Below are positions 14,518 through 49,424 of a DNA stretch of 64,000 bases, in pieces; position 1 is the first letter of the stretch; each line of letters starts with the position of its first letter. The stretch is taken from the IMG/VR virus record IMGVR_UViG_3300031566_003932; one strand, given 5' to 3'. The translations under genes were made by a program, and so were the position numbers. This stretch comes from a virus. The notes under the pieces were generated by a model that made no database searches, was not told where the DNA came from, and saw only the letters and a program-made list of their open reading frames with translations.

Positions 14518-14521
14518 GAAT

Positions 14522-15386: not shown

Positions 15387-15389
15387 GCA

Positions 15390-15700: not shown

Positions 15701-15707
15701 GTGAATC

Positions 15708-15872: not shown

Positions 15873-15881
15873 GGAGTATGT

Positions 15882-16004
15882 GTGGCCCACATAATCATCC
15901 TCATCGACTTCGTAGGCTGGTGTTTGTGGATGTACCAAAAACCGGGGCCTTGGCCGTGTATTTCATTCCTGGGGGGAATTGTAATTGGAGGGTTGATGAT
16001 ATGA
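15882..16004 (+). CDS. Small two-TM membrane protein (40 aa), not in ORF track
   Basis: MAHIIILIDFVGWCLWMYQKPGPWPCISFLGGIVIGGLMI; AAGGAG SD; stop overlaps next start. Confidence 0.45.
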   Translation: MAHIIILIDFVGWCLWMYQKPGPWPCISFLGGIVIGGLMI

Positions 16005-16555: not shown

Positions 16556-16557
16556 TC

Positions 16558-17280
16558 ATGCCAATAGATTTCGCAAAACTCGCAGAAGGCAAAGACGATT
16601 CAAAACAGAAACCTAAAGCAGTCCCGCCCAAAACCGGGGAGATCATCACCCTTAACACGGCCCTGGTACACCAACTCAATGTCTTTATCGCTCAGGGTGA
16701 GCAGATCAGGGATGAGGCCTTTAAGATCAAAGTCACGGACGACAAAACAAAAGAAGCAGCTACAGACCTTGGCTCCAAGATTCACAAGGCCATGAAACGG
16801 ATTGATGCTGAAGTAGACGAAATCATAGAAGCCCCTAAAGGTTTTGTGACTTATGCCAAGAATATCGGTGCAAAGGTTCAGAAACCTTTTGAGGAAGGGA
16901 AGGAGTATCTAAGGGGTGAGATCAAACAACACAGGGCACGAGAAACACTAGCGGCAGAGCAACGAAAGGAAGCGGCTCGGAAAGCGACCGAGGCTCTGCA
17001 AAAGAAACTCAACGAGGAAGCCAAGGCCTCCGGTATCAAGGAAGAGATCAAGGTGGATGCCATAGCTGTTCCGGGGGTAGACAATATCACCCGAGCGGAA
17101 AGCGGTACTTCCTACGGCACGAAACGGCCAAAGGTTACAGTCGTGAATCTTGAGATCGTTCCCCGCGAATATCTCAAAATCGAGTTAAGGACAAAGGCGG
17201 TCCATGATGCTATGCGCCAGGGAGTGACGGAGATCCCCGGCTTAGAACTCGACTGGGAAGAGGACATAGCGTTTAAGTAA
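16558..17280 (+). CDS. Coiled-coil recombination-module protein (Gp157-like C-terminus)
   Basis: VPREYL...EIPG; lies between exo and bet. Confidence 0.5.
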   Translation: MPIDFAKLAEGKDDSKQKPKAVPPKTGEIITLNTALVHQLNVFIAQGEQIRDEAFKIKVTDDKTKEAATDLGSKIHKAMKRIDAEVDEIIEAPKGFVTYAKNIGAKVQKPFEEGKEYLRGEIKQHRARETLAAEQRKEAARKATEALQKKLNEEAKASGIKEEIKVDAIAVPGVDNITRAESGTSYGTKRPKVTVVNLEIVPREYLKIELRTKAVHDAMRQGVTEIPGLELDWEEDIAFK

Positions 17281-17304
17281 ACATTTTAATAAAGGAGGTT
17301 TAAC

Positions 17305-18630: not shown

Positions 18631-18791
18631 TCTATCCTGATGAAACCATGATCCAATGCCCCTGGTGCGGATACGAGGACAGCGAAAGCAAGTTTTTACC
18701 TCTACTTGATGATAGATATGAATGCCCTAATCCAAAATGCTACGAGGTATTCCGGCCAAGGGAGGAGATAGAGAAGGAAATAGAACAATAG
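18627..18791 (+). CDS. Small Zn-ribbon protein (54 aa), not in ORF track
   Basis: CPWC and CPNPKC; ATGA overlap with bet stop. Confidence 0.55.
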   Translation: MIYPDETMIQCPWCGYEDSESKFLPLLDDRYECPNPKCYEVFRPREEIEKEIEQ

Positions 18792-18846
18792 ATGGAAAAT
18801 TTTCCATGTATGCAGGCTGTTGGGTGATTTATGTTTAATGAAATAT

Positions 18847-18964
18847 GGGGGCACTGGATAATCCGTGTACAGGATGATACTTGCTGTAATCTAAGCATGA
18901 GTTATGGCGCCCTATGCCTCATGCCGGGGAGATCAGTAGAGGGGTTCAATTCCCTTCACCCCCA
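18847..18964 (+). other. Degenerate tRNA-like element, possible attP core
   Basis: T-arm AGGGG-TTCAATT-CCCTT then CACCCCC-A; CTGTAAT loop upstream; too long and imperfect for a real tRNA. Confidence 0.3.
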
Positions 18965-18973
18965 CCCCGTATC

Positions 18974-19032
18974 ACCCAACAAGGTCAATCCAGCCGACCC
19001 GATAAAACGGGCGGCTGATAACAGCGTTAGCC
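18974..19032 (+). other. Integron attC-like site (59 bp)
   Basis: ACCCAAC...GTTAGCC; inner stem ATC(C)AGCCG(A)CCCG / CGGG-CGGCT-GAT with two unpaired bases. Confidence 0.7.
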
Positions 19033-19050
19033 CAAGAAAGGAGGGAGAAG

Positions 19051-19320
19051 ATGTCTAAACCGAATTGTTATAAATGCAAATACCGAGGGATGATTTCTGG
19101 TGATGCCCATTCTCAATGTAAACACCCCAAAGTAAAGATGCATGAAAATCCTTTCGGGGCATTAGTTGATGTGCTGGAAGGCAAGACTGAAAGTGCTCGA
19201 ATAGAATTAGAAATTAAGGGACATCCCCAGGGTATTCGGTCAGGCTGGTTTATGTGGCCTGCCAATTTTGACCCGACATGGCTTGAAAATTGTAATGGAT
19301 TCGAGGCCAAAGAATCTTGA
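19051..19320 (+). CDS. Cys-rich hypothetical protein
   Basis: CYKC...C; GGAGG SD just after the attC GTT box. Confidence 0.6.
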   Translation: MSKPNCYKCKYRGMISGDAHSQCKHPKVKMHENPFGALVDVLEGKTESARIELEIKGHPQGIRSGWFMWPANFDPTWLENCNGFEAKES

Positions 19321-19345
19321 CCTCCGCCCCTGCAATATGTGATAT
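19317..19345 (+). promoter_or_regulatory. Putative integrase promoter
   Basis: TTGACC, 17 nt, TGATAT. Confidence 0.45.
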
Positions 19346-19376
19346 GCTTTCCCTTGAACAAAGAGGGAGGCTGACC

Positions 19377-20435
19377 ATGCCAGCGTACATCGATGGGAGG
19401 GGGTATATCCGCGTCACTGTACCGGGATTCGACAAGACATTGACTTCCTGGCGCGGGCAACGGCTCAAGGACTTATCATCTGAAGATATCCAAAAACTCT
19501 GCGATTATTTTAATCAGGCCATGATGCTAGGTAACTATGAAGCGGTAAAAACGTGGTTCCCCGGGGAACGCGCAAAGCACCTCGTCAAGAAACTAGCCTA
19601 TAAATGGCTTGAAGCTGAGAACAAGAAAGAATCCACCATTAAGATTGAGCAGCGGGATCTCGAAACGTATATCCTGCCACAGATCGGAGATATGGCAATC
19701 CAGGAAGTCACAAGACAAGACTTCTATTGGATTCGGGAAAGGTGGGGTGACATTCACATGGCTCGGAGAGTGAGGGCAGAGTGTCAAGCCCTTATGACCT
19801 GGGCATGGCGAGAAGGCATTACAGAGCGTCAGGTATTTGTTCCGACTATCAAGGTTGACAAGAAGCCTACCCCCTATATCGAGTTAAAGGATCGCTGGGG
19901 GATATGGGAGCTGGTAGATGATGAAAGGTGCCGGGCCCCCCTGGTCCTCTCTATTGAAATGGGGCTACGGATAGGTGAGATTGTGGCCCTGCAGCGTGAT
20001 TGCGTTGATATCGGAAGGGATCTGCTCAGGATCGTGCGCCATGTCTCCGGAACTCGAGTAATCCCAATGCGGAAAGCAGGGGATGAGTACCGGATACCCA
20101 TTGACATGCCGTACAGCCAGAGGGCAAAGGCCGTACTCATAGAGCGCAAGGCAGACATAGGATCCCCATGGTTATTCCACGGTGTCAAGGGGAACCACCT
20201 ACAGGTTGACCGGGTGAGCAAGGCATTTAAACGAGCTGCCCGGACCTATGGATTGCCTCAGGCGCATTTACACCAATGCAGACATAGCTTTGCTCAGGAT
20301 CGGGTAGCTGAGGGCTATCACCTCGAGGAAGTGCAAGCCTTGTTAGGGCATGGGAATAGGGGGACCACTGAGAAGTACAAGGGACATGGGGTACGACACA
20401 TGAGAAAATTAGAAGTTATGGGAGGTAGAGAGTGA
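19377..20435 (+). CDS. int: Tyrosine recombinase (integrase)
   Basis: GLRIGE, HQCRHSFA, LLGH, TEKY catalytic motifs; GGAGG SD. Confidence 0.9.
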   Translation: MPAYIDGRGYIRVTVPGFDKTLTSWRGQRLKDLSSEDIQKLCDYFNQAMMLGNYEAVKTWFPGERAKHLVKKLAYKWLEAENKKESTIKIEQRDLETYILPQIGDMAIQEVTRQDFYWIRERWGDIHMARRVRAECQALMTWAWREGITERQVFVPTIKVDKKPTPYIELKDRWGIWELVDDERCRAPLVLSIEMGLRIGEIVALQRDCVDIGRDLLRIVRHVSGTRVIPMRKAGDEYRIPIDMPYSQRAKAVLIERKADIGSPWLFHGVKGNHLQVDRVSKAFKRAARTYGLPQAHLHQCRHSFAQDRVAEGYHLEEVQALLGHGNRGTTEKYKGHGVRHMRKLEVMGGRE

Positions 20436-32080: not shown

Positions 32081-32434
32081 CTAACTTGTATCCAGGCTTT
32101 TGGTGATATGCACCTCTGCCTTGTCTTCCGGTTTTGCGGGTACGGTAAACTTGCCGCCTGATTCCGGGGAAATCTCGAATTCGATGTAATATTTGCCTAT
32201 GGTATCGGTATCTCCCGACTGCCAGGCATATTGAAATTTCCCGGTTGTGGCTGGCGTGATACTGATTCCCGTAGTTTGCCGGTTGATTTTGAGCGCCCCG
32301 GATTTGGCGTCTTTCATGGTACAATAGACGGTTGCTCCATCGATATCCACCACATCGCCTGCAGCATCCTTAACTTGACCGTAATAATAGGGCTGCAGGT
32401 CATTTTGTTTGATATAGACAGTTTCAATGCTCAT
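32081..32434 (-). CDS. BppU N-terminal-like Ig-fold virion protein
   Basis: IKQND...VDIDGATV...GKFQYAWQSGDTDTIGKYYIEFEI. Confidence 0.65.
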   Translation of the reverse strand: MSIETVYIKQNDLQPYYYGQVKDAAGDVVDIDGATVYCTMKDAKSGALKINRQTTGISITPATTGKFQYAWQSGDTDTIGKYYIEFEISPESGGKFTVPAKPEDKAEVHITKSLDTS

Positions 32435-32652
32435 GGCAGAAATTCTCTCCTATCAGTATCTTTCTCAAATATCCGCCGTGTTGTATCCTTATGAAATAGC
32501 CTGATATCTGTATCCTTTTCAAACACTCGCCTAGCTCCTTCAATCTCGATTGCCACGGCTGTATAGGTTCCATATTCCGGCCAAAAATCCTCGGCCCAGA
32601 AATTATCAGGCCAGAACTGCGAAGGCCAAAAGCCAGCGGGCAATAAGGCCAT
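32431..32652 (-). CDS. Small protein with FWP-like x4 and FxKDT x3 repeats
   Basis: Direct reading of translation. Confidence 0.55.
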   Translation of the reverse strand: MALLPAGFWPSQFWPDNFWAEDFWPEYGTYTAVAIEIEGARRVFEKDTDIRLFHKDTTRRIFEKDTDRREFLP

Positions 32653-34847
32653 TAGCTGCCATCCAATGTATTGACGGCGGTACGGTTGCCATCCGAATCC
32701 ACAGTTACAATTAACCGACTCTTTGTATCATCTATACTTCGGAAATGCAGAGTTGCGCTACCGCCCCCGCTCGTGATTCCGGTGAGCATGGCCATATCAA
32801 TCCGCTGTTTTTCAATAAACGGATATCCGCTTTCAATTTCCGTATAGAAAAGACTGCTTACCCGTACATCCGCCGAAGTTATGGCATTCATGACCGTTTG
32901 CGAAGTCGGAAGCGTAAGGATATGCGCGTTCAAATTTTGACTCGTCGGCAATGTAACAACATGAGCCTGTAACGTCAGACTTGACGGAAGTGTAGCGATC
33001 AGACTGGCCAATGCGCTGGAACTGGGTATAGATCCACTCGCCGGAAGTGTGCTGATTTGTGCTTCAAGTGTCTCGGACGTAGGCAAGGTAGCGATCAGAT
33101 CCGCTAAAGCACTGGAACTGGGCAAGCTGCCTGATAGCGGTAATGTCACAATATGAGCATTGAGCGTTTCAGACGTGGGCAAAGTCACCATGTGCGCTTT
33201 AAGTGTCAGACTTGTCGGTAAAGTAATGATATGAGCGTTCAAGGCCAAGCTTGTCGGCAAGGTACTGATTTGAGCCTGTAAGGTCAAAGAATTCGGAAGT
33301 GTGGCAATCAAGTCGGCAAGCGTGGAACTATTCGGCAATGAGCCGCTTATGGGTAATGTGACGATGTGCGCGTTTAGAGTTTCGCTAGTCGGAAGCGTGA
33401 CAGCATGTCCTTGCAACGTGAGACTAGTCGGGAGTGTCACAATGTGAGCATTCAAGGTCAAGCTCGTAGGCAGCGTATCAATATGCGCTTTCAAATTCTC
33501 TGAACTTGGTAGATAACCAAGGAACGCATCATAACAGGCCGATTGCACTTCACTTGCAGAGGCCCCGCCCCCGGCTACCCCCTCGCTGATACCTTGCAGG
33601 GAATCATCGGAACTGACGAAAGCCGACATATTGCCACCTGCCGCCATGAGTAAGGAAAGAACGCTGAAATCTGCTACTTCCGCCGTGAGATCCGAACTAT
33701 CCGCAACCACCGTTTTCATAAGGTGATTTAGATTGAAATCATCTACCACCTGAGCGCATGCGCTTTGTACTTCGGCTGTAGAGGCTCCCCCGCCTGCCGC
33801 ACCTTCAGCAATGGCTTGTAAAGCATCATCGCTGCTTACAAATGCGCTGACATCTCCCCCAGCCGCGATCATGAGGCCCAAAACGCTGAAATCCGCAACC
33901 TCAGTTGTCAAATCGCTACTGTCCGCCACAACCGTTTTCATTAGGTGATCGAGGTTGATATTAGAGAGGGCGACGCCTGCAATGATTCCGACCGCCTCAG
34001 AGTTGGGCAAGGTTATGATGTGAGCATTTACTGTTTCACTGGTTGGCAACGTGATAATATGTGCGTTTAGAGTCTCGCTGTTTGGCAAAAGTCCGATTTG
34101 CCCATTAAGCGTTTCAGAATTCGGAAGCGTATCGATCCATCCCTTGACAGTAAGGCTGTTCGGGAGATCGGCAACCATTCCGCTTGTAGGGCTTATCCCG
34201 AACCAGGCATCCACCTGCAGGCTGCTTGGCAAGTCAGCTACATGCCCAGAGAGCGGTAAAGTCAAAATGTGAGCATTTAGAACTTCACTACTTGGAAGCG
34301 TTAAGATATGAGCGTTGAGCGTTTCGCTATTCGGCAAATCTGCCACATGGCCCGAAAGTGGCAAAGTAACGATATGATCATTCAAGACGCTACTCGTGGG
34401 GAGCGTAATTATGTGCGCGTTGAGTGCTTCGGACGTTGCCAGGGTGAGAATATGAGCGTTGAGCGTTTCCGAATTTGGCAGAACACTGGCCAGAGCCCAG
34501 GGGTAATCATCATATTTGCTGTGCCAGAATGCCGAAGTGACCACCGCCACAGTGTCAAAATATGGGAGGCACTTACTGTCATCTTGAATAGCGATGCCCA
34601 TATCGCCATAAGTATCCATATTTGAGTTTGTGAGCGTGAGATTATAATGGCCATCCATGCTCTCGATTGCCGCCCAGCTATTCGCCGAGATACTTACAGG
34701 TGTCACATTTCCATATTTTCTAATGGCCTTTTCATCGGCCCCCGAAAGCGTCAAATCCGTTACCGGTGTCAGACCGTCTGAATTACTCACAATCGGCCCT
34801 ACTGGAAATGTAATTATAGTTTTGCCGATTAATTCTTTTTTGCTCAT
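32652..34847 (-). CDS. 731-aa Ser/Thr-rich repeat protein (putative virion fibre)
   Basis: About 30 units of LPxSxxLxAHIxT (with 6- and 9-aa variants) and two ~60-aa repeats. Confidence 0.8.
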   Translation of the reverse strand: MSKKELIGKTIITFPVGPIVSNSDGLTPVTDLTLSGADEKAIRKYGNVTPVSISANSWAAIESMDGHYNLTLTNSNMDTYGDMGIAIQDDSKCLPYFDTVAVVTSAFWHSKYDDYPWALASVLPNSETLNAHILTLATSEALNAHIITLPTSSVLNDHIVTLPLSGHVADLPNSETLNAHILTLPSSEVLNAHILTLPLSGHVADLPSSLQVDAWFGISPTSGMVADLPNSLTVKGWIDTLPNSETLNGQIGLLPNSETLNAHIITLPTSETVNAHIITLPNSEAVGIIAGVALSNINLDHLMKTVVADSSDLTTEVADFSVLGLMIAAGGDVSAFVSSDDALQAIAEGAAGGGASTAEVQSACAQVVDDFNLNHLMKTVVADSSDLTAEVADFSVLSLLMAAGGNMSAFVSSDDSLQGISEGVAGGGASASEVQSACYDAFLGYLPSSENLKAHIDTLPTSLTLNAHIVTLPTSLTLQGHAVTLPTSETLNAHIVTLPISGSLPNSSTLADLIATLPNSLTLQAQISTLPTSLALNAHIITLPTSLTLKAHMVTLPTSETLNAHIVTLPLSGSLPSSSALADLIATLPTSETLEAQISTLPASGSIPSSSALASLIATLPSSLTLQAHVVTLPTSQNLNAHILTLPTSQTVMNAITSADVRVSSLFYTEIESGYPFIEKQRIDMAMLTGITSGGGSATLHFRSIDDTKSRLIVTVDSDGNRTAVNTLDGS

Positions 34848-34848: not shown

Positions 34849-36336
34849 TTAATTTCTCAATAATCTATTGTAATAAGCGATTCTAGGGAGTATGGAGATT
34901 TCTCCCCCCGCCGTCACAATCTCACTCGCCCCGATATACCAAGTTGAGCGTGTTTGCCCCTCTATATCATCCGTAAATGTACCGCTTAAATCCTCCCCAT
35001 CATCCACGATCGCCAAGTTTGTTACATCTCCATCAGAATCTAAGCGGTAATCGTCATTAGCATAATCCTTAAAAACTGAATTGGTATGGACGTCCTTGCT
35101 CTGATAGGCTTCATCGGGAGAAGTATCATCTTCAGAGATGTTGTAGGCATGAGTACCAAATCCTCCACCGGCATCGGAGTAATCCTCACCACCAGCGTCA
35201 GCTTGACAGAGGTTATTCTTGACTGTTAGTGTTCCAACAACCTCAGCCGTGAGTTCTCTAATATTATTATAATTGCCGATACAGGTATTGTTTAGAATAT
35301 ATTTATCTCCAGATGAATCGCCTGAAACTCCTAGTCCGTGGTAATTAGCGTTTGTAAATCCATAACAAATACAATTCCTTACATTTATATTCCTTGCTGC
35401 ACCGTGATGATCGATGCCCCAATTAGAACTAACATCCCCTTTGAGGAGGAGGCGATTCAAGGTCATTACGCCAGTATCAGCACCATCTCGCAACTGTACA
35501 CCAGAGTTATAGGATCCTGATATATCAAATGCTAGATTTGACACTTCAATATTGTCGAATTTTCCTGCAATGCTTTCTTTAAATTGGATTATATCCCAAG
35601 TACCCATATTTATTCTGGCTCCATTCCCATATGCCCCTCCATTATGTTCATCTCCACTCTGAGCTGTGAGTTTGAAAAGATAAGTAGCTGTATCAACATC
35701 AAAATATACTTCAGCGGTAGTACTTGTTTCTTCATTATTGTGTTCCCCTGTGAGATTGCCTGTCAATGGGCCGGTGCCTGGATCGATGATATCTGCTTCA
35801 AAGGCGTTGACTGTATCGTAGTTAAGACCAGAACCGATTGAGAATGTTCCTTCTGCAATCGTGCCCTTTGACAAAGTATAATCTGAAGGCAATCGTTGAC
35901 CTACATATTCATTCTTGATAATCTGATCAAAGGCTCGTTCTATATAAATTAAACCAGGATCTTTTTCCTTGTTGTAGATTGCATCAAACTGGCTTTTGGT
36001 AATAAGACCAAGATCAAGTAGTAACTTATAGTCAATGAACCAATCTCGCCGCCTGAGTCGTTTTTCATCAAGTCTTGCTGTGCGTTCCCAGGGATATTTC
36101 CCTTGAGAATCTACAGCCACAAGATATTTCTTGATGTTGTCATAGACCTTTTGACCAGGCCATTTCCAATTGGTAGAACCACGTAACTGCCAATAATCAC
36201 CTGGTAATGTGAGGACACAATGATGCTTCCTGGTGATACCACCATTATGAAATCCATCAGGGCGAATGTCGATTATCTGACCATCACGCCAATATCTGGG
36301 GTCTTGTGAACCACCAACTTTGAGTAGAAGTTCCAT
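34849..36336 (-). CDS. Virion protein with putative parallel beta-helix domain
   Basis: INVRNCICYG, ILNNTCIGN, VKNNLC stacks; DYRL and DDIEGQTR...IGASE tail. Confidence 0.6.
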   Translation of the reverse strand: MELLLKVGGSQDPRYWRDGQIIDIRPDGFHNGGITRKHHCVLTLPGDYWQLRGSTNWKWPGQKVYDNIKKYLVAVDSQGKYPWERTARLDEKRLRRRDWFIDYKLLLDLGLITKSQFDAIYNKEKDPGLIYIERAFDQIIKNEYVGQRLPSDYTLSKGTIAEGTFSIGSGLNYDTVNAFEADIIDPGTGPLTGNLTGEHNNEETSTTAEVYFDVDTATYLFKLTAQSGDEHNGGAYGNGARINMGTWDIIQFKESIAGKFDNIEVSNLAFDISGSYNSGVQLRDGADTGVMTLNRLLLKGDVSSNWGIDHHGAARNINVRNCICYGFTNANYHGLGVSGDSSGDKYILNNTCIGNYNNIRELTAEVVGTLTVKNNLCQADAGGEDYSDAGGGFGTHAYNISEDDTSPDEAYQSKDVHTNSVFKDYANDDYRLDSDGDVTNLAIVDDGEDLSGTFTDDIEGQTRSTWYIGASEIVTAGGEISILPRIAYYNRLLRN

Positions 36337-36359: not shown

Positions 36360-36689
36360 TCACTCCGAAGAAACACGGAGGCCGCTGTATGGGTCCGATT
36401 TTCCCTTGTACAAAGGGACGGCTAGATCAGACCAGACCTCCCCGTCGAAACTCGCCTTTGCGTTAAAGATTATTTTCGGCCCAGCTGGGTCAAATCCGGG
36501 TAAAGCGTGATAAACCGAACCATCAACAGCTGCATCTTCTACGGGTTGCTCTACCCCATTGATAATCACAATTACCTTTGTCACGCCAGGATTAGGGTCA
36601 CTGACCAGATAATATGTCTGGCCGAATGCCAGCACGGGCAGCAAAAGCGCCATGAGGCATATACCTATTAGAAAAGCTATTGTTTTCAT
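36360..36689 (-). CDS. Small secreted beta-rich protein
   Basis: MKTIAFLIGICLMALLLPVLAFG signal peptide. Confidence 0.6.
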   Translation of the reverse strand: MKTIAFLIGICLMALLLPVLAFGQTYYLVSDPNPGVTKVIVIINGVEQPVEDAAVDGSVYHALPGFDPAGPKIIFNAKASFDGEVWSDLAVPLYKGKSDPYSGLRVSSE

Positions 36690-36701: not shown

Positions 36702-39620
36702 CTAAAAGTATTTCTCCTGATAAATGTTTGTCTTGGCATCGATGAGTTTCGCTGTCAAAACCTTGATGTCTTCCTTATTCATAAACGTGCCGTCAAAGAT
36801 ATTCTCTACAATCCGGCCCTGATGCTCAAGGGAGGCCATGATACTCGAATTGACCCGGCCCCTTCCTGCCTCATCCAGATTCGGGGCAAGATTAGAGGCC
36901 AGATCCAGATAAGAAAACCTGATCCCCTGCCCGTTATTCAGAATCTTCACGGCCTCGCTGTAATACTGCATTCCGTCAATGCACATCCTGAGCTCATCCT
37001 TTACCAGTAGGTCGCGCCAGAGTTTCACGGCTTCTTGAGCGTATTGTTTGAGTTGTTCAGTGAATTGCCCGCCGTTGCCTTCCAGGGTGTATTTGATATG
37101 ATGGATAAGGTCACGCATCCAGAGAAAGCAACCGAGCCGCCGTTCTGGGTACTTCACCCGGTCCGCTTGCATAAGTGGCCAGTTGCGCTGAAACCGTGCC
37201 CGCCTGATCAGCTCCGTTGCATACCCCGTGTGCATAATAGCGATGTCATCCAGCACACAAATCTTGCTGATACCGCTATTCATTTTCTCTTCCGGATGCT
37301 CGTGAACCATGCCAAAGAACCGGATTCCCTTGTGATTGCGAAATATCCGGGCCGGGAGGTCCGTCTTGAACAGAGCTGCCGGTTCCGTTGCGTAATGATG
37401 CTGTCTGACCGAATATCCGTTATAACAATTCTGTCTCAAATGCTGTGGCAGGTTCCGGGCGTTTTCAAGAGTTTCGTCGCTATCAATCCATAAGATCCAA
37501 TCCATGACCGCTTTTTCGATTGTCCGGTTGCGGGCCTCGTCAAAACCTTGTTCAAGAGGCGACTTGATCTTGAAAGTCTGTGCTCCGAATTTCTTGGCCA
37601 CACGTTCGGTCTCATCGGTCGTGGTCTCATCAATGCCGATAATAATCTCATCGGCAATAGATTGAATCGTTTGCAGGGTCTTCCCGAGCGTATATTCAAC
37701 ATCCTTGGCAATCATACAGACTGAGAGTGTTTCCCGTGGTGCCTGGCTTATGAGTTTTCGCTTATAATTGATCTCGCCCGTGGGAAGACCCGAGCTCTGA
37801 AAGGTCAATAGCCAGTGACCGACATAGCCCTTAAAGGTGTAAAGGCTGGGTATGGCGATCAGCTTATAATCTCGCTGATTGCCCCATATCTCAAAAATGT
37901 CCTGCCGCTCGAAGTGGTGAATATGCGAACGCCATCCTTTTTCCTCTTCATATCCGAGAGCCTCCCATGCACCGGAGGGAACAGTAATAAGCATGTGACC
38001 GTTTGGCTCAAGATGCTGCATAAGCAAATCCGAAATCTCGGCCACATTTGGTATGTGTTCAAAAAGTTCTGAGGCAAGAATCATGTCGTATTTGCCTAAT
38101 TCCTGGTGCATTTCCTCAAGTTTTCCGCAAATGAATTTCACCCGACCTTGAGTATTGGCCTGTTTCTCCCAGGCGCGAGCCTTGTCAATATTCGACTGCA
38201 TGAAATCAAGGCCGGTGAATCTGGCTTCAGGCATCCTGCCGGCGAGATTCATCGTATAATGACCGTGAGCGCATCCGAAGTCGAGTACGTTTTTCGGCTT
38301 CAATTCCTGTATTTTCTGAAACATCTGCATAAATCGGCCATTACGTCCAAGATCCTCCGGGCCATAATGCACACCCTTTTTCTCTTCGTGGGCGTAATAC
38401 CGTGTGTAGTGGTCTTCATACTCACCGGAGAAATAGAAATAATAATTCTTTTTGAGATCGGGCCGGGTCTTTTCCGCTCCGTCCTTAACTGCCGCCACAA
38501 TATCGCTTTGCTCTTCAAGGTGCTTGTGTAAGCGATAGGTGTTTGCACTCCGTTCCCTGAGCATGTCTTCAAACTGCTTTTCCCATTCTGCCGCGATATC
38601 GGGCCACGCCTGCCGCTTTGCTTTGGCCTTTTTGTGTAGCCCTATCCATTTATGCAGGGCCGTTCTCACAGTCTTTGCAAAGAGCTTCTTATCGACCCCG
38701 CCGTCTTTGTCTAGATCAAGCAGGATCGCGCCCGCTTCATTCATCGTTTCCGGGAGGGCCGCCGTCTTGAAGGCAATAAACGGGGTCCCGCAGGCGTTAG
38801 CCTCAAGTGCTACCATGCAACTCGTATCTTCAAAGGTCGTGGGGTAGACATAAAGCATACACCGGGCCATGAGTTCGGCAAGTTGCCGTTTCCCGAGAGG
38901 CCCCACGTTTGTCACGTTCTTTCGGTCATCACAGCATTTCCAGAGATATTCATAATACTGCCTTAGCTGCGGGACTGTGTTATCATACCCGCAGACGTAT
39001 AAGTGACAATTAGGGAGCTCATCCATAATGCCTTTGTCGCCCACGAGATTTTCAAGACCCCGCTCCGGGCGCGAGGCATAGATGAGGGAATTCGGCTCAC
39101 GGTCGAAAAGTTCAAGTCCTTCATATTCCTGATAATCGATGCCGTTCTTTGTGGCCGTGATATATTCTTTTGGGATTCCATAAACATCCGAGACCTGCCG
39201 CTTGTGGAATTCCGAAACCGTGAAGACCTGATCAACATACATGAGTTGCGCTTGCACCATCATGCCATGGCGATGCAAAGCCAGATCATGCAACCACCAC
39301 ACATTGAGCTTACTGTTAATGATTTGCGTGAATGAATGCCAGTGACGCTGTGCAATCACTACATCATAGGGTGCTCTCATGACGTAATGGAAGCGATCAC
39401 CAAGAGGCATATTTTCTCTTGGAGTGCCTAAAAACTCGTAGGTCACGCCATCCCATTTGCCGCATTGCTGCTCATTTGTAAAAACGATTACACTATGGCC
39501 GCGCTTTACGAGTTCGCGGGCCATGTAATACCCGGCGCTTTCCGATCCTCCGAGACTTTTACCGTCTGGAATGGTTGCGCCGTTAAATGGCATGCCGGGA
39601 ATTGCCATTGCGATGTGCAT
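36702..39620 (-). CDS. Tri-domain GT4 + SAM methyltransferase + GT2 fusion
   Basis: GT-B: GGSESA, YASRPERGL, FEDTSCMVALEA; MTase: VLDFGCAHG, SELFEHI; GT-A: SVCMIAKD, WIDSDE, VHE, HTGY. Confidence 0.88.
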   Translation of the reverse strand: MHIAMAIPGMPFNGATIPDGKSLGGSESAGYYMARELVKRGHSVIVFTNEQQCGKWDGVTYEFLGTPRENMPLGDRFHYVMRAPYDVVIAQRHWHSFTQIINSKLNVWWLHDLALHRHGMMVQAQLMYVDQVFTVSEFHKRQVSDVYGIPKEYITATKNGIDYQEYEGLELFDREPNSLIYASRPERGLENLVGDKGIMDELPNCHLYVCGYDNTVPQLRQYYEYLWKCCDDRKNVTNVGPLGKRQLAELMARCMLYVYPTTFEDTSCMVALEANACGTPFIAFKTAALPETMNEAGAILLDLDKDGGVDKKLFAKTVRTALHKWIGLHKKAKAKRQAWPDIAAEWEKQFEDMLRERSANTYRLHKHLEEQSDIVAAVKDGAEKTRPDLKKNYYFYFSGEYEDHYTRYYAHEEKKGVHYGPEDLGRNGRFMQMFQKIQELKPKNVLDFGCAHGHYTMNLAGRMPEARFTGLDFMQSNIDKARAWEKQANTQGRVKFICGKLEEMHQELGKYDMILASELFEHIPNVAEISDLLMQHLEPNGHMLITVPSGAWEALGYEEEKGWRSHIHHFERQDIFEIWGNQRDYKLIAIPSLYTFKGYVGHWLLTFQSSGLPTGEINYKRKLISQAPRETLSVCMIAKDVEYTLGKTLQTIQSIADEIIIGIDETTTDETERVAKKFGAQTFKIKSPLEQGFDEARNRTIEKAVMDWILWIDSDETLENARNLPQHLRQNCYNGYSVRQHHYATEPAALFKTDLPARIFRNHKGIRFFGMVHEHPEEKMNSGISKICVLDDIAIMHTGYATELIRRARFQRNWPLMQADRVKYPERRLGCFLWMRDLIHHIKYTLEGNGGQFTEQLKQYAQEAVKLWRDLLVKDELRMCIDGMQYYSEAVKILNNGQGIRFSYLDLASNLAPNLDEAGRGRVNSSIMASLEHQGRIVENIFDGTFMNKEDIKVLTAKLIDAKTNIYQEKYF

Positions 39621-39634: not shown

Positions 39635-39913
39635 TTAGATGCTGTCGATTTGCAATTTGCTTCTTATCAATCCGATAAGGGCATCTTTGTTGATGTATTT
39701 GGGCGGTAATTCAATGCCCATTGCCTCTGCCTGTTTTTTCAATTCCTTGTAAGTTAAATCCTTAAGGTCAATCCTGGTCTCTACCCCTTCGCCCTCGTCC
39801 GCCGTATCAAAGACTTGATCGGGCCGGGGCAAGTCTGCTTCGGTCAAACCCCGTTTGAAATCGTCTTCCGTGGGCTTCATGAGACCTTGTCTGATTGCGT
39901 CATCTCGTAACAT
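39635..39913 (-). CDS. Small protein with Rho-N/HeH-like C-terminus
   Basis: DLTYKELKKQAEAMGI...KDALIGLI. Confidence 0.6.
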   Translation of the reverse strand: MLRDDAIRQGLMKPTEDDFKRGLTEADLPRPDQVFDTADEGEGVETRIDLKDLTYKELKKQAEAMGIELPPKYINKDALIGLIRSKLQIDSI

Positions 39914-39963: not shown

Positions 39964-40944
39964 TTACACACTGGTTACATGAGTCATGAGAAAGGCGAGA
40001 TTCTTGGCCGTAATCTTCTCATCCTGGTAGTAACCAAGCTCGATTTCCTCGCTCTTGGTCTTCGGGTCAAACGGATGCCGTTCTGCGATCATGTTCGGCA
40101 AGCCCGGTTTGGTCCATCTGAAGGAGTACATAAAACTAGGTTCCTCAATGCTCGGGCTGGCCGGTGCATAATAAAACAAGACATGATCACCCCAGAGCGG
40201 GCTTAATGATGCGGTTTGACCTTCCTGCGTGGTGCTGTAGTAGGCCCTTCCGACATGGAACGCATCAAGCTCGAAAATTCGCTTGAACTGCTCCACACTG
40301 GCATATCTGACACCCACTTCACCAGGTGCCCCGGCATAACCGTATATGATTGAGATCACGTCGGCATGCTGCCTGAAATTCCGCCATGCCAGCTCGCTCA
40401 TAATGCAGCGGTTTGGCCTGTATCCTGTTGAATCCTGGACGTTAGCGACTGCCTGCCAGCAATCGGCCAACGGAGTGCTATAACCGGTTCTGTGCTCTAT
40501 CCAGTCAGACGTGATAGTGGCATAAGAGCCACAATTGCTTCCACTGGTGCACCTTAGAGCTACCCGTTGCTCCCAGGACAACATGAGTTTGCTTTTGATG
40601 AATTTTGTCCGGCCTTCCCGCATGTTACCGATGAAAACCGGGTCCATATTTTCGCGATCCTCAAGATTCAAGGGCATTTTGAGAGCGTAATTCTTCGCGT
40701 TATAGCTTTCAGATGAGACACTTCGCTCGATCTTGTTCGCTTCATCTCCTGGTGCCCTCTTGTCATCCTCAATCCTGAAAGCGTCCGCATGACTCCAAAT
40801 GATGTAAGTATCGCTTTGTTTTCCCACCGAAACGATGGGGGCAATAACATCGGCAATCATGCCTTTAGGTTCGTAATTGATCGCCACATTCGACAAATGC
40901 TGATCAATATGCAGGTCGTGACCTGTTGCTCCTCCTCCTGCCAT
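39964..40944 (-). CDS. Major capsid protein
   Basis: 326 aa after decoration genes; HIDQHLSNVAINY, IAPIVSVGKQSDTY. Confidence 0.85.
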   Translation of the reverse strand: MAGGGATGHDLHIDQHLSNVAINYEPKGMIADVIAPIVSVGKQSDTYIIWSHADAFRIEDDKRAPGDEANKIERSVSSESYNAKNYALKMPLNLEDRENMDPVFIGNMREGRTKFIKSKLMLSWEQRVALRCTSGSNCGSYATITSDWIEHRTGYSTPLADCWQAVANVQDSTGYRPNRCIMSELAWRNFRQHADVISIIYGYAGAPGEVGVRYASVEQFKRIFELDAFHVGRAYYSTTQEGQTASLSPLWGDHVLFYYAPASPSIEEPSFMYSFRWTKPGLPNMIAERHPFDPKTKSEEIELGYYQDEKITAKNLAFLMTHVTSV

Positions 40945-43734: not shown

Positions 43735-44445
43735 TCATCCATTTATCACCTTGATTATCTGCATATTCTCAGGCACTATTTGATGACATTTATGGCAAAG
43801 TTCATAAGGCTCAAGTCTGAATTTCGTAATATCATCAAAGATATTCCCGAGCATGCCTTTCTTTGCTGCATCCAAGCAGCACGTAGTTATGTCACCATTG
43901 CTATAAACCATGACCTGGCCTCTCTCAAGCCAGGGGCAGGCGTATTTGACAGGACTTTCAAACCAATCGACTTGACCGGCCCAATTATTTGGGAGTGTCA
44001 CCGGGTCAATTGTAAGTCGCCCAGCGATACCGAGCTTTCGAAATATCTCAATCGTTCTTGCCGTTACGCGAGGGTCGCCATGATAGGTGATATCGATTGC
44101 GGTAATTCCTGCATTCTGCAAGTTCCGGGCAAGTTCCTCAGTCATCAACTTTCCATTAGTGTTTGCGTGTATGATCTGCCGTATAGGTAGCTTATTACGA
44201 GCATGCTTGACCATCTCTGCAAGATCGGGGTTTAACGTAGGCTCACCTATGCCAAATAGGTTTAACTCGCGCTGTGTGCCCTGTTTGCAGAAGTGGGCCA
44301 CCCATTCGATAGCCTTCTCAAAGACCTTCATGCTCATCAAGCCCACTTCCCGGAACTTCTTTTGAAAAGGAGCCGGGCAGTAGGGGCATGTATTGTTACA
44401 GAGGCTTGAAACCTCGATGCTATTTATGGTTGTTATCGGCTGCAT
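43735..44445 (-). CDS. Radical SAM protein with twitch/SPASM-type domain (paralog 2)
   Basis: CNNTCPYC, GIGE, TNG, NWAGQ, C..CC..CxxC. Confidence 0.9.
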   Translation of the reverse strand: MQPITTINSIEVSSLCNNTCPYCPAPFQKKFREVGLMSMKVFEKAIEWVAHFCKQGTQRELNLFGIGEPTLNPDLAEMVKHARNKLPIRQIIHANTNGKLMTEELARNLQNAGITAIDITYHGDPRVTARTIEIFRKLGIAGRLTIDPVTLPNNWAGQVDWFESPVKYACPWLERGQVMVYSNGDITTCCLDAAKKGMLGNIFDDITKFRLEPYELCHKCHQIVPENMQIIKVING

Positions 44446-45076
44446 ATCTAACCAATTTCTCCCTCAATGGATGTGTCAATCTGTCCTCCGGTATCACGAC
44501 TAAAATCGGGCCTGTAAGCAAAAGCTCATCAGGTGCCACAAAAACTAAATCATCCGTATATTTTTCAAAAACCTTGAGCCATTGTTCTGGGGTCTTCATG
44601 TTGATATGTGAGGGATCGGTCCCTTTGTCCAGGCATAGCGTGTGCGCCTGTATACGTCCGACTCGAAAGCATTCATTCAACACATCGTCAAGTATCGATT
44701 CATCGATGTGCTCAAGCAATGCCGAGGAGAACACCAGGTCGAATTCTTTATCCTTGTAGGGCATGTTCTGAACGCTGCCCTGCCTGAGATTAGGCAATCC
44801 ACTATGAAAGACTGCTATCTGGCTTATCTCGATTCCATGGACATTTTTAAAACCCCTGCTTTCCCATACCCTCATGGCATGGCCCACGCCCGAGCCAAGG
44901 TCTAAGATCTTGGCCGAAAGAGGAAGGCCGGTATACATCAGAATGCGGTTGATATAATACGCCTTGGCTTCGTTGGCCCATTCGGGCATGGGACTATTGA
45001 TATACTGGTGCCGATACCAGCCCTTGAGATATTCCTGATCATACCAGGACCCGTCTATGAATTTTTGATTATCCAT
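44420..45076 (-). CDS. Class I methyltransferase (copy 2)
   Basis: Same as 50-706. Confidence 0.85.
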   Translation of the reverse strand: MDNQKFIDGSWYDQEYLKGWYRHQYINSPMPEWANEAKAYYINRILMYTGLPLSAKILDLGSGVGHAMRVWESRGFKNVHGIEISQIAVFHSGLPNLRQGSVQNMPYKDKEFDLVFSSALLEHIDESILDDVLNECFRVGRIQAHTLCLDKGTDPSHINMKTPEQWLKVFEKYTDDLVFVAPDELLLTGPILVVIPEDRLTHPLREKLVRYAADNNHK

Positions 45077-45830
45077 TAGCTGCCTTAAATATCTTCCACC
45101 CGGTGAAATTCCTATTATATCCCTGCATTCCGCCCTCTGTTTCACCCCGGAAAGTAAAATCGAATCCGCAGTCTTTGAGAAAAGATTTCAGGATTACATT
45201 TGCCGTGTTTTGATCCGGATATCCGTATTGAGCAAATTGATCATCACTAAAAAAGCCGGGTGCGGGCGCGTGTGTCTCCAGGTCCATAAACTTGACCCGC
45301 GTTAACGAATCTTTCAGGCTATCCCTCGGGCTGAAAATCTCGTATTCGCCACCCTCGATATCTACCTTGAGAACGTCAATAGTATCGAACAAAGATAGAA
45401 GATGCTCAAAGCCTATGGTCTGGGTAAAGCCTGCATTGATATGCTCATTAGGATCAAAGAAAGTTCCGTATTGCCCGTGGTTGCTCCGGGAACTTGACCA
45501 GAATATGTTACGAGCCTCACCCGTTTTCAATGCCGCGGCCGCCCACATGGGCGTAATGACATGGCCAAAATGATTATTATATGTGTTCTTTACCAAAGTT
45601 CTGAAATTCTCAAAGAAGGCCTCGATTGCCAGGATTCGGTTAAAGCCCTTTTCTGCTGCAAAATATAAGGTACTGCAACCGATATGAGCGCCTATTTCAA
45701 GCATAGTATCATGGGAACCGTTGAAATCTTCCATGTATCTCACACCCTCATCCAGAATCCACTGGTCGCAGTCTTGCAGTTCCATCGTGACATCACGGCT
45801 TTTGATGTGCGGGTGTGCTATGTTAAGCAT
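45069..45830 (-). CDS. FkbM-family methyltransferase (copy 2)
   Basis: Same as 699-1460. Confidence 0.85.
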   Translation of the reverse strand: MLNIAHPHIKSRDVTMELQDCDQWILDEGVRYMEDFNGSHDTMLEIGAHIGCSTLYFAAEKGFNRILAIEAFFENFRTLVKNTYNNHFGHVITPMWAAAALKTGEARNIFWSSSRSNHGQYGTFFDPNEHINAGFTQTIGFEHLLSLFDTIDVLKVDIEGGEYEIFSPRDSLKDSLTRVKFMDLETHAPAPGFFSDDQFAQYGYPDQNTANVILKSFLKDCGFDFTFRGETEGGMQGYNRNFTGWKIFKAANG

Positions 45831-46587
45831 ACATCCTCACGAGGTCCTGGTCAGTAGGTTGATTCTCCATTTCAAACTGCGCCATAAGATCGGCGGATAT
45901 CTCTTGATGACAAGTCCGACAAAGAGCATAAGGCCGGATAGGGCGACTAAGGATATCCCCATCAAACACATTGCCAAAAACGCCGAGATTACGATAGTCA
46001 AAGCAGCAAGGCGTAATATTACCCTCAGTGAGTACATATCCTCTCCCCTCTATAAGTGGGTCGCATCGACCCTTGAGCATGCAGTCAACCTGATTCTCAG
46101 GCTCAAGCTGCCCTGCCCAATTGTGCGTATAGATAATAGGGCCATTATTGAGCACCCCCGGAATTCCGACCTTTAGCATGATCTGAGCTGCCTTACGCGC
46201 ATGGGCGGGCGAATGCGGGGAAAGGTCAAGCTGATCCATGCCCGCATCCTTGAGGCCCTTGCAGACCTCATAAGTCATATTTACGCCGTTAGTACACATG
46301 CAGACGCGCCGATCGCCCATGATTTCCTTGGTGCGCTTCACCCGTTTAACGAGTTGTGGATCGAGAAACGCTTCGCCATCCCCGTTCATATTGACTTCCA
46401 TCTGTGTGCCACGGTTGCAAAGCTCCTGTAAAAGCTCAAGGGTCTTGTCAAATACCCGGTCTGACATGATGCCGGGTTTCCTTGCAGGGTCTTTCACGAG
46501 CAGGCGGTTAATGCAATATTGACATTGCAAATTGCAAATGTTAGAAAGCTCAATAGTCGTTATGGTCTTGAGGGTAATCATCCCCAC
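45823..46587 (-). CDS. Radical SAM paralog 1 (copy 2)
   Basis: Same as 1453-2217. Confidence 0.9.
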   Translation of the reverse strand: MGMITLKTITTIELSNICNLQCQYCINRLLVKDPARKPGIMSDRVFDKTLELLQELCNRGTQMEVNMNGDGEAFLDPQLVKRVKRTKEIMGDRRVCMCTNGVNMTYEVCKGLKDAGMDQLDLSPHSPAHARKAAQIMLKVGIPGVLNNGPIIYTHNWAGQLEPENQVDCMLKGRCDPLIEGRGYVLTEGNITPCCFDYRNLGVFGNVFDGDILSRPIRPYALCRTCHQEISADLMAQFEMENQPTDQDLVRMYA

Positions 46588-47201
46588 CTCATAAGGCCCT
46601 TATCGTCTAAAATTTCATCGTTCAACAGATTGATGAAATGATGACAATCTGTGCAGTAAACATGATATATGCTTTGCACCCGTAAATATTTTTTGCCATA
46701 CATATTTTCAGGATATCCAGCCGTAACCCAATTTTTATGCTCACATTTTTCCATAAAGGAGACCTCCCATGGGACACCTAATATTTTGCATCTTGCATAT
46801 TATAGCGATTTTATTCGGTTTCATCCTGCTGTTCATAACCGTTCCACTTCATATCATTTACGCTTGCGTACACAGAAAAAGAAAGTTAGCTTAAATATCG
46901 CTAGTAAGCCAATCATCGAGAAAAGGCTTCAATCCCTTTTGTATATCCAGATATAGACTTAAAGCGGAATTCCGTTCTATTTCTAATTTATTCGGATCTG
47001 ATGCAACTTTTTTAGCAAAAATCAAAGCTCGAAATTCTCCATTATCCTTTGTATCAAATTCAAACTGTCTTGTGCATTTATGGCAAAGTCGAGCAGGGTA
47101 AACGTCAAAAAGCATTCTATCTATTGCGTCCTCTGCCCCGCATTTCTCACAAGAAATGAAAACGCCATATTTCTTAGTGATCGAAATATTGATAAAGGCC
47201 A

Positions 47202-49424
47202 TCACGCAAACCCCTTCTGAGGCTCAAGCCTCGGTTTTGCGCTCTCCTTGCCATTCCATTCATCAACTATCGTGACCGGTATCAGGAGTGCGCGGCATTG
47301 AAAGTGATTCGGAGGCGTGTAACTGCCCCAGTCCTTCAAGATCCGCCCGTTGAGATGTTCGCAAATATCCGATGTCCGCTCATCCAATACCGCACTGTAT
47401 TCATAGGCCAGCACAAAGCCTCTAAATTCCGGTTGCCCGAAAAGCGCCTGCCGTGCCTGGTTAAGCGCGTCAGACGTATTTGTTCGGGCAATATTCTCTA
47501 ACCTGGCCGGGACGTTAATCGCCTTACCCCCCGCATCGACTTCCGGCAGCATCTGCAAGAGCGTTGTTTCCTCGCCTATGGCCTTGATGGTCTGAGGTAA
47601 GGTCTTGTCGTACTTGACGGCATTCTCAAGCACATTTTGAACGCCTTTCAAGGTATCTTGCTCCATCACGCCGGCAATCGTGAAAGCCTTGGATGCAAGA
47701 AATTTCTCAACCTGCGTCTTATCCATGCCGGGGCGAATGGTCTTGGCCTGCACCTTCTTAGGCAATTCACGGCGGGCGAATTCATAACCATTCTCAAGCA
47801 CGGTAGTCAGATTCTTTCGTATATTGCGCCTGAGATTGCCCATGATTGCCTTGCTTATTCCGATTCCGAGTAGTTCCTTGAGCTTTACATTACCGAGAGA
47901 CCGCTGACCCACGATATTGATAATCTGCTTTTCTATGGATATCCGGACCTCTGCCATGCTCTGCTTGAGGTCGTCAACAAACTTGCCGTCTTGATCATCC
48001 AGGGTGCCTTTGATCGCGGTGAAATCTACTCGTTTGAGCCATGGCTTTTCGGCAAATTCCTTTCTGATAAGATCCTGCTTTTCCTTGGGTTGCGCGGAGA
48101 TCCAGTTTTCTATTTCCTCATCTGAGGGTGGTTCCTCACCGGGCAGGCCCTCTACAGGTATTTCCTCCTCTGGTTCCTCTTCCTCTGCCTTCTCAGGAAA
48201 TCCCATACTCTGCCTGATATGGGCCTCGTCAGTATCGCTCTTTGTTACTGCCCCTTTGCTGACGAGTTCAGCCCATTGTTTCGCTATCTCCGCTTTCTGC
48301 GTGTCGGAGATAGGCTCAAATCGAAACCAGGGGAAATCCTCTGTGCCAAAATTCCATATCGCAAGTTGTCTGAAAAGCTGCTCGTTCAAGGTTTCTTCAA
48401 GGCGCGTGGCGATGATATCCAGAATCCAGAAGAAAGATTCGAGTTGTGTCTGTGATTGGCTGTAACTGCCGGTCTTTCCTTCTTCCGATAATCCCAGGAG
48501 ATTCGGGACTAGGATTGATCGCCCGATAGCACGGTTATGCAGCCCTATGGCCTTTTCAAAGGCATCGGTTCTGACAGGTTGGAAAAGATTGAGTTTTATA
48601 TGATCAGGTACATGGGCAGCCATCTTTACTGAAATATTATTGATGAGATCTTCAAGATGTTCCTTGTCTCCTGGTTGCAATGATCCGTGTTGCGCCCAAA
48701 TAAACCCGCTGGCATGCCGCTCAAGGAAGATATTGTAAAACCGGATCGTAATATCTTTCGACCACCAGGAGCGATAGCAGGCCCTCAGATCTGATTCGCC
48801 GTATATGCGATTGACGTCCGGTTGATGTACAAAATGAATGATCTTGGTAAGGGGTATCTCATTCCGGGCCCCCCCCACAACTTGGCTGATTTTCTCGATA
48901 TTGCCATGCTCATCGAGTTGAAAGCCGCCGTTGAAAGTTTCGGCCGGCCTGAGCTTGAGATCCTTCAAGCCCCAGTATGTCTTGCTGTCATAGGTGATTG
49001 GTTGAAAGACTTTCTCGATTACAGAATAACCATTTTGGAAGGCAGAAAGTATCTCGATCAACTTGTCCGAGAAGCTGCCCCGGATCTGTTTGATTGCAAA
49101 GCCGAAGAAATCGGCCATCTCTTCATGCTCTTTGCGGGGCTCCCCATTATCATCCGTTTCAATATCGAAGTACCAGTCACGGCTTAGGACAGCATTCATT
49201 TTGAATTGCAGGGTGGGCTTGATCTGATCGTCTTTGACCATATTGCTGTAGATCTCATTCCCCTTGGTGATCTTGAGCGTATCGGGATCATAGTCATGAA
49301 ACGTACCGAGGCCATAAAGACTGGTTCTCGCTATACCAATTTCACCGGCTTTGGGGGTGCCTGCTTCTTTCTCAAGAAGATCGGGTTTCTTGAATGCTTG
49401 TAATGCTGCGCTAAGTCTGCTCAT
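47202..49424 (-). CDS. Portal-MuF fusion (copy 2)
   Basis: Same as 2832-5054. Confidence 0.85.
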   Translation of the reverse strand: MSRLSAALQAFKKPDLLEKEAGTPKAGEIGIARTSLYGLGTFHDYDPDTLKITKGNEIYSNMVKDDQIKPTLQFKMNAVLSRDWYFDIETDDNGEPRKEHEEMADFFGFAIKQIRGSFSDKLIEILSAFQNGYSVIEKVFQPITYDSKTYWGLKDLKLRPAETFNGGFQLDEHGNIEKISQVVGGARNEIPLTKIIHFVHQPDVNRIYGESDLRACYRSWWSKDITIRFYNIFLERHASGFIWAQHGSLQPGDKEHLEDLINNISVKMAAHVPDHIKLNLFQPVRTDAFEKAIGLHNRAIGRSILVPNLLGLSEEGKTGSYSQSQTQLESFFWILDIIATRLEETLNEQLFRQLAIWNFGTEDFPWFRFEPISDTQKAEIAKQWAELVSKGAVTKSDTDEAHIRQSMGFPEKAEEEEPEEEIPVEGLPGEEPPSDEEIENWISAQPKEKQDLIRKEFAEKPWLKRVDFTAIKGTLDDQDGKFVDDLKQSMAEVRISIEKQIINIVGQRSLGNVKLKELLGIGISKAIMGNLRRNIRKNLTTVLENGYEFARRELPKKVQAKTIRPGMDKTQVEKFLASKAFTIAGVMEQDTLKGVQNVLENAVKYDKTLPQTIKAIGEETTLLQMLPEVDAGGKAINVPARLENIARTNTSDALNQARQALFGQPEFRGFVLAYEYSAVLDERTSDICEHLNGRILKDWGSYTPPNHFQCRALLIPVTIVDEWNGKESAKPRLEPQKGFA

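Follow-up and report, generated by a model that had tools for sequence, protein, structure and literature searches.

The DNA analysed here is IMG/VR virus record IMGVR_UViG_3300031566_003932, taken as a window of 64,000 nucleotides, and the element under study is a minus-strand open reading frame (ORF) at 32652..34847 (including the stop codon) that encodes a putative modular fibre protein of 731 residues, built around two arrays of a short Leu-Pro-x-Ser (LPxS) repeat. The window covers a 44,370-bp genome 1.44 times: positions 1-19630 recur at 44371-64000 with zero mismatches, so that features below 19631 occur twice. The source genome is that of a temperate siphovirus-like phage. Unless stated otherwise, all features described below lie on the minus strand.

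Domain plan and repeat anatomy of the fibre protein

The protein, whose full-length homologues are 36-62% identical to it, begins with an Ig-like β-sandwich (residues 1-118; 34494..34847), the presumed virion anchor. LPxS array 1 follows (residues 123-292; 33972..34481), with 14 units, 11 of 13 residues and three of nine. The centre of the chain is occupied by two copies of a 74-residue helical domain (NLDHLMKT...EVQSAC) at residues 298-371 (33735..33956) and 372-445 (33513..33734), which are similar to each other (73% identity in protein and 63% in DNA). LPxS array 2 (residues 446-658; 32874..33512) holds 18 units, 15 of 13 residues and three of six, and the chain ends in an α/β domain (residues 660-731; 32655..32870) that forms a conserved end-cap. 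An earlier reading of this DNA from its letters alone, hereafter the sequence-only reading, had the arrays flanking a duplicated segment of ~60 residues; the duplication is real, but each copy is 74 residues long.

Together the arrays contain 32 units beginning L/I/S-P/A-x-S: 26 of 13 residues, with the consensus LPTSETLNAHIVT, three of nine, confined to array 1, and three of six, confined to array 2. Ser4 is present in 32 of 32 units, Pro2 in 31 (one unit reads LATS) and Leu1 in 30, and Leu7 and Ile11 are nearly invariant. These counts agree with the sequence-only reading, which had reported about 30 xPxS repeats with an invariant serine, in two arrays of 13-residue units with nine- and six-residue variants. 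The pattern [LIVMF]PxS occurs 30 times, against a mean of 1.5 and a maximum of 8 in 5000 shuffles of the protein, and 26 motif pairs are spaced 6, 9 or 13 residues apart (shuffle mean, 0.01).

Tandem Repeats Finder detected no DNA-level repeat in the arrays. The mean identity between units is 55% in protein and 52% in DNA, identical residues share the same codon in only 29% of cases, and Ser4 is encoded by both serine codon families (AGY in 18 units, TCN in 14). In eight homologues, down to 36% identity, Ser4 is kept in 161 of 161 units and is never Thr; their repeat regions contain a single [LIVMF]P that lacks a serine two residues on (AMPAI in homologue P0005). Because Ser4 is invariant across homologues, codons vary and the DNA is not repetitive, the repeat is old and maintained by selection at the protein level; conservation at that level had already been proposed from this one sequence.

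A heptad register runs through the arrays

Homologues carry a canonical heptad coiled coil (SSLDVRV..., for example SSLDTRVSSIGVEVDSIQAQV) exactly in place of LPxS units, and they also have longer units of 20, 27, 34 and 41 residues. Across 13 homologues, 161 of the 179 LPxS spacings follow the rule 6+7n (6, 13, 20, 27, 34, 41), another 14 follow 9+7n (9, 16, 30, 44) and four fit neither; the 20 long spacings depart from chance with P=2.7e-6. In 13 distinct long units, strong hydrophobic residues occupy positions 0 mod 7 (80%) and 4 mod 7 (76%), against 4-39% at the other positions, and in the 13-residue units positions 1, 7 and 11 are each 98% hydrophobic.

When this register is traced back to the start of a unit, Ser4 and Ile11 fall on 'a', and Leu7 and the next Leu1 on 'd'. 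The hydrophobic heptad register of the long units thus places Ser4 on a core position, and the sole irregularity is a step of three residues, not four, from Leu1 to Ser4 across Pro2. The array looks like a heptad coiled coil from which one residue is missing at each L-P-x-S. By the spacing rule, the 13-residue unit would be a heptad plus a hexad, the nine-residue unit a nonad and the six-residue unit a bare hexad.

Predicted structure

AlphaFold was run on the monomer only, with a 139-sequence alignment. The N-terminal domain was modelled as a β-sandwich (pLDDT 91-98) and the C-terminal domain as a small α/β fold (pLDDT 85-96), with the repeat region at pLDDT 45-77. Within the arrays, 23 of the 26 13-residue units were given a short helix, starting at Ser4 in 16 of them and at position 5 in four, and ending at position 12 or 13; L-P-x links one helix to the next. 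The predicted helix of the last unit extends into residues 649-668.

Fold searches with the N-terminal domain returned weak phage matches (3uh8, Z 6.3; 4v96_AA, Z 6.5; 6v8i_BN, Z 6.7). Of these, 3uh8 and 4v96 represent the BppU N-terminal domain/TP901-1 ORF48, and the 80alpha baseplate is represented within the same range (Z 6.3-6.7); generic Ig domains gave similar fold scores. BFVD matches of the domain carry the names 'BppU N-terminal domain', 'tail fiber' and 'tail protein', at E about 1e-4 (1.8e-4 to 1e-3 for BppU). Together these models and matches suggest that the N-terminal domain is a virion anchor. As modelled, it recalls BppU-type anchors (TP901-1 ORF48, 3uh8/4v96) in being an N-terminal β-sandwich of ~110 residues, in a type of protein that is trimeric and peripheral and has variable distal parts. 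They are its best phage-related fold matches, but Z scores of 6.3-6.7 lie within the generic Ig-like range, Pfam at E<=0.01 does not match BppU_N, and the fibre gene lies outside the baseplate module.

A large fibre family in which LPxS is a rare shaft

The full ORF has no sequence match in Pfam, PHROG or PDB, and at E<=0.01 the only Pfam family returned was a spurious BON-like match. The N- and C-terminal domains of ten family members matched nothing in Pfam or PHROGs, and no solved relatives of these domains were found by sequence in the PDB; neither array 2 nor the C-terminal domain, each compared by itself with PDB sequences, gave a meaningful match. Neither tblastn against 50,697 GenBank phages nor a scan of 185,579 prokaryote genomes returned a relative of the fibre, an ESM Atlas search retrieved unnamed viral clusters and nothing else (query TM below 0.25), and PHROG annotation around a family member in locus L060 gave nothing informative. 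A typical family member, P0026, matched only a hypothetical protein of a Microcystis phage and one uncultured virus; the Microcystis phage homologue is encoded at the end of the tail module, after an 849-residue protein.

The fibre has only some dozen close homologues, and their modular plan consists of a conserved N-terminal domain of ~118 residues, a variable shaft, sometimes the 74-residue central domain, and a conserved C-terminal domain of ~70 residues. With a threshold of E<=0.001, a profile search collected 5931 proteins from 1.84 billion representatives. Most of the best 150 have only the N-terminal domain in common, always at the N-terminus, in proteins of 118-1415 residues. The C-terminal domain, with its D..GNR motif, ends 64 of the 154 top family matches, and the shortest of these 64 are 169-190 residues long. 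Of the 156 family-search proteins examined, just 13 have LPxS repeats, which makes LPxS a rare shaft type inside a large fibre family. The 74-residue domain (NLDHLMKT...SEGAAGGGAS) also turns up, single or doubled, in four otherwise unrelated fibre-like or β-helix-like proteins of 436-1111 residues (P0009, P0010, P0020 and P0022); it is absent from Pfam and behaves as a mobile fibre module. In locus L007 (8138-10109) the fibre homologue is split into two ORFs of 437 and 232 residues, while the similar homologue in L058 is one ORF of 637 residues; the split is either a frameshift or an assembly error.

The sequence-only reading had called the protein a fibre. That assignment is supported by the anchor domain, by a repetitive shaft that homologues exchange for a heptad coiled coil, and by the conserved end domain.

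Gene neighbourhood and an optional, putative adhesion cassette

The fibre gene belongs to a minus-strand late operon that starts with terS, terL and a Mu-type portal fused to MuF. Four enzyme genes come next, for a radical-SAM (rSAM) protein, an FkbM methyltransferase, a methyltransferase (MT) and an rSAM-SPASM protein, and after these the ChaB/HNH/protease, two scaffold- or cement-like proteins and the capsid gene (39964-40944). A 92-residue ORF (39635-39913) follows, then a fused GT4-methyltransferase-GT2 glycosyltransferase (GT), a 109-residue protein, a 495-residue protein and the fibre ORF. Beyond the fibre lie 73- and 117-residue proteins, the Mu gp36-like adaptor, Neck1, the terminator, the tube, the tape measure and three distal tail proteins. 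The fibre gene thus sits between the capsid and GT genes on one side and the head-tail adaptor on the other, among head and neck genes and not at the tail tip, as the sequence-only reading had also noted.

Directly upstream of the fibre gene, the 495-residue protein (34849..36336) is, by its structural neighbours, a right-handed β-helix protein and a candidate glycan-binding or depolymerase spike. Its Atlas neighbours belong to Beta_helix/Pel9A-like/PL6 families (TM 0.5-0.58), and it has no Pfam match; its C-terminal ~100 residues are conserved directly upstream of the fibre gene in five loci (L001-L004 and L007). A β-helix protein together with a fibre is the usual composition of a host-recognition module. 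The 109-residue protein (36360..36689) is encoded between the GT and the β-helix gene, and its N-terminus reads, by eye, like a signal peptide.

This pair of genes is not fixed in place. Over the 4.3-kb stretch from capsid to GT, the DNA of locus L029 matches the window at 73.6% identity, and its major capsid protein is 82.5% identical. At 9073-9533 it lacks the stretch corresponding to 36698-32690 of the window; all that is left there is a counterpart of the 109-residue gene and, from the fibre gene, the final 12 codons (GNRTAVNTLDGS). By this alignment L029 represents a natural deletion in which the β-helix and fibre genes are gone and the GT is retained. In three other loci (L007, L055, which is the contig of P0013, and L058) a pair made of an upstream protein and an LPxS fibre lies just upstream of terS. 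Because the pair is deleted in L029, missing from other GT-bearing loci and relocated in these three, the fibre and the β-helix protein form an optional cassette, separable from the GT.

Several smaller features lie next to the fibre gene. The 73-residue protein (32431-32652) combines KDTxRRxF repeats with Trp-rich FWP repeats (FWPSQFWPDNFWAEDFWPEY). Its place behind the fibre gene is conserved, and the fibre-less L029 retains the protein as well. The 117-residue protein (32081-32434; phrog_1084) has the pattern DG.T...G.Y...DT.G.Y, which loosely resembles the fibre N-terminal domain, with only 4% probability in hhalign against the fibre family. Its gene occurs in some fibre-less relatives (L030) and is missing from others (L034, L035, L040). 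Two plus-strand ORFs of 73 residues (34051-34272) and 105 residues (34308-34625) run antisense to the repeat arrays; most likely they are a side effect of the repetitive sequence on the coding strand.

The capsid-linked glycosyltransferase is inherited independently of the fibre

The GT4-methyltransferase-GT2 enzyme (36702..39620; 972 residues, assigned by Pfam domains) has a GT2 domain whose nearest solved relatives are GmaR (3.8e-15), 7msk (Glyco_trans_2-like; 5e-9) and SunS (5e-8), and its MT part is nearest to WbdD. GmaR transfers GlcNAc to flagellin in Listeria (PMC9638930). For SunS the recognition element is a helix and the modified residue lies in the loop after it, and ThuS carries out both O- and S-glycosylation (PMC6405829); the SunS geometry, a helix and then a modified loop residue, resembles the helix-LPxS-helix arrangement predicted here.

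Homologues of the GT, 33-82% identical, were found at 25 viral loci (L023-L047), always directly after the capsid gene. Only five of these loci, from four contigs, contain a fibre-family member, and at least eight carry the GT without the fibre (L033, L034, L035, L039, L040, L041, L029 and L030). In the first six of these a gap of just 6-27 nt separates the GT from the adaptor gene behind it, and in L030 only the 117-residue gene lies between the two. Two complete genomes with terminal repeats, G003 (which contains L035) and G004 (L040), carry the GT and gave no fibre-family match in a search in which three positive controls matched. The putative acceptor and the GT are thus not jointly inherited, in at least eight loci and two complete genomes. 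Because G003 and G004 have the GT without the fibre family, the GT must have another conserved client, which leaves the fibre as at most an additional one. By this distribution the fibre is not the dedicated acceptor of the GT, and a head protein is more likely than the fibre to be its conserved client. LPxS was not found in the capsid, decoration and tube proteins. In G004 the GT is present with no rSAM genes between portal and protease, so the GT and the rSAM pair are themselves separable.

Discussion

We think it probable, though well short of certain, that the 731-residue protein is a fibre with a segmented and likely trimeric coiled-coil shaft, in which a new Pro-x-Ser hexad motif recurs and Ser4 is a structural core or cap residue. 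Such a virion fibre would consist of the Ig-like anchor, two shaft arrays, two 74-residue helical domains and the C-terminal end-cap. Each 13-residue unit of the shaft would contribute one heptad plus a hexad, with core residues Ser4 (a), Leu7 (d), Ile11 (a) and the next Leu1 (d) at a spacing of 3-4-3-3. Leu1-Pro2-x3 would break the helix at the site of the missing heptad residue, and the nine- and six-residue units would be nonad and hexad forms of the same break. Ser4 would then be kept invariant as a small hydrogen-bonding residue in the first core layer, or as the N-cap, of each short helix.

Breaks of this general kind are known. Insertions of six or two residues into trimeric heptad coiled coils give β-layer breaks, mostly in phage fibres (Hartmann et al. 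2016, PMC4786415), and in 2C3F, the tail-fibre hyaluronidase of prophage SF370.1, a serine has been described in the first core position after the break (PMC4786415). The LPxS shaft shares with such α/β coiled coils (Tcar0761, 5APZ; 2C3F) the heptad background, the insertions of six (13=7+6) or two (9=7+2) residues, the bare hexads and a hydroxyl residue where the helix restarts; 175 of the 179 spacings in the family are 6+7n or 9+7n. Canonical β-layers belong to parallel homotrimers in which three residues of each chain adopt β conformation and turn it by 120 degrees, with hydrophobic residues at β1 and β2. At the β3 position, a D/N/T/S N-cap, the family has either x3, which is T/N/S in 138 of 161 units, or Ser4, in 161 of 161, depending on the register chosen, and the e and g preferences are absent in both. 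The motif itself differs: here it is L-P-(T/N/S)-S-(E/Q)-T, which contains Pro and lacks both the K/R at e and the D/E/Q at g. The arrays also run to 14 and 18 consecutive units, whereas few internal layers are known elsewhere, and both the β conformation and the trimer are putative here. Hartmann et al. 2016 detected no coiled-coil protein with β-layers in regular hexad spacing, and 2C3F has only two layers so spaced (PMC4786415).

The head fibre gp8.5 of phi29 (3QC7, 6QYY), which has an accessory adhesion role and is dispensable (PMC6542822, PMC7602432), offers a further parallel. Like the protein described here in its predicted form, gp8.5 combines an N-terminal β domain of ~110 residues with a stalk of many short helices joined by turns, and its gene lies near the capsid gene. 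Unlike it, gp8.5 has a β-tulip or double barrel as its base, where the N-terminal domain here is an Ig-like sandwich; in the window a GT gene separates capsid and fibre, and relatives have the fibre before terS. A phmmer search against all PDB chains gave no sequence similarity between gp8.5 and the fibre, and gp8.5 entries were not among the fold-search matches.

Several observations weigh against a segmented coiled coil, and some of them favour other readings. The hydrophobicity of the arrays peaks, in Fourier analysis, at a period of 2.17, which is β-like, and not at 3.5 (the signal is weak at 3.25-3.6); K/R is missing at e, as is D/E/Q at g, and Pro is undescribed in β-layer motifs. The repeat region was modelled at pLDDT only 45-77, in a monomer model that is silent on oligomer state and on burial of Ser4. 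Single-sequence AlphaFold drew strands at NAHIVT, at an unusable pLDDT of 35. The placement of the fibre on the virion could be head, neck or tail. A β-structured shaft, in which each 13-residue unit is a strand plus a tight turn of a triple β-helix or β-spiral, with L-P-x-S at the corner and the serine hydrogen-bonded in the turn, would account for the 2.17 period, for the alternation of hydrophobic and polar residues in LNAHIVT, for the abundance of T, I and V in the units and for the strands of the single-sequence model. We regard it as improbable: the alignment-based model gives helices instead, units of six and nine residues would disrupt a regular β-prism, and the 6+7n/9+7n spacing and the a/d register run on into undoubted heptad coiled coil. 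The complete conservation of Ser4 (161 of 161, with no Thr, Asp or Asn) is stricter than that of ordinary helix caps and also fits a site recognised by an enzyme.

The sequence-only reading had preferred such an enzymatic role, a regular row of O-glycosylation sites for the neighbouring GT. On this account the GT4-MT-GT2 enzyme would O-glycosylate the serine of each inter-helix L-P-x-S linker, and the MT and rSAM enzymes would perhaps tailor the glycan, to give a sugar-coated fibre; a structural role and a modification could coexist. The GT gene is found two genes upstream of the fibre in the window and in four sublineages (L001, L003, L005, L010/L019), no LPxS fibre was seen outside this GT-bearing lineage of phages, Ser4 is absolutely invariant and more so than Pro2, and the GT2 domain is nearest to the protein and peptide glycosyltransferases GmaR, 7msk and SunS, with SunS and ThuS as precedents for the loop site and the O-linkage. 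Against this, the GT is kept after the capsid gene in many loci that have no fibre, the fibre cassette lies upstream of terS in three loci, away from the capsid-proximal position of the GT, LPxS is not the enzyme's general sequon, the heptad register places Ser4 in the core, and Thr never replaces Ser. The sequence-only reading had itself named a buried or helix-capping Ser4 that stays unmodified as what would count against it, and both placements now appear in prediction, the core position from the register and the helix start from AlphaFold. We hold a fibre serving as a multiple acceptor to be unlikely. In view of the resemblance between the GT2 domain and the protein glycosyltransferases GmaR and SunS, we keep glycosylation of Ser4 as a possibility, if a minor one. 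In a combined form, the arrays would be a long α/β-type coiled coil with a new Pro-Ser break motif, and the capsid-adjacent GmaR/SunS-like enzyme would attach O-linked glycans at 32 serines per chain, each exposed in its linker before or after assembly; this seems to us similarly doubtful. The sequence-only reading's other suggestion took the units as repeated core peptides crosslinked or otherwise modified at HxT positions by the head operon's two small rSAM enzymes. The same late operon does contain two rSAM genes, one of which has a SPASM-like end. His10, however, is found in only 16 of the 26 units here and 72 of 161 in the family, the fibre is a folded multidomain structural protein of 731 residues with no leader/core layout, and both rSAM genes occur in the fibre-less genomes L034 and L035 (the complete genome G003). 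We give this suggestion almost no credence and reject the fibre as a RiPP-like rSAM substrate. On balance the analysis weakens the glycosylation reading, supports the fibre and rejects the rSAM reading.

Taken with the β-helix protein, the segmented coiled-coil fibre would form an optional host-adhesion cassette that related phages gain, lose and relocate independently of the GT and rSAM genes. The distribution splits two systems that gene order had joined, a capsid-linked enzyme for protein glycosylation, conserved across the phage lineage, and a fibre and β-helix adhesion cassette that is optional. Comparable cases are glycosylated repeat adhesins and virion glycosylation in mycobacteriophages, where the major capsid protein of Che8 and of Rita carries the glycans (Freeman et al. 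2023, cited in PMC11256854). Phage glycosyltransferases accompany virion structural proteins in both settings; the glycans there are on the capsid protein, whereas here the fibre is only a putative acceptor and the GT is inherited independently of it.

The anchor and end-cap define an uncharacterised fibre family of ~5900 metagenomic proteins with a common N-terminal anchor, the top matches often carrying the C-terminal cap as well, and this family is represented in none of Pfam, PHROGs and PDB. For structural biology, the arrays offer a long natural series with strict heptad-plus-hexad (13-residue) periodicity and an invariant Pro-x-Ser break, and leave a choice between Pro-containing hexads that form β-layers and a new type of break. 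For phage glycobiology, the fibre and the GT are a pair on which a cheap and decisive test could be made. If Ser4 were glycosylated after all, a fibre coated with methylated glycans would be a second, optional client of a system that mainly serves a conserved head protein.

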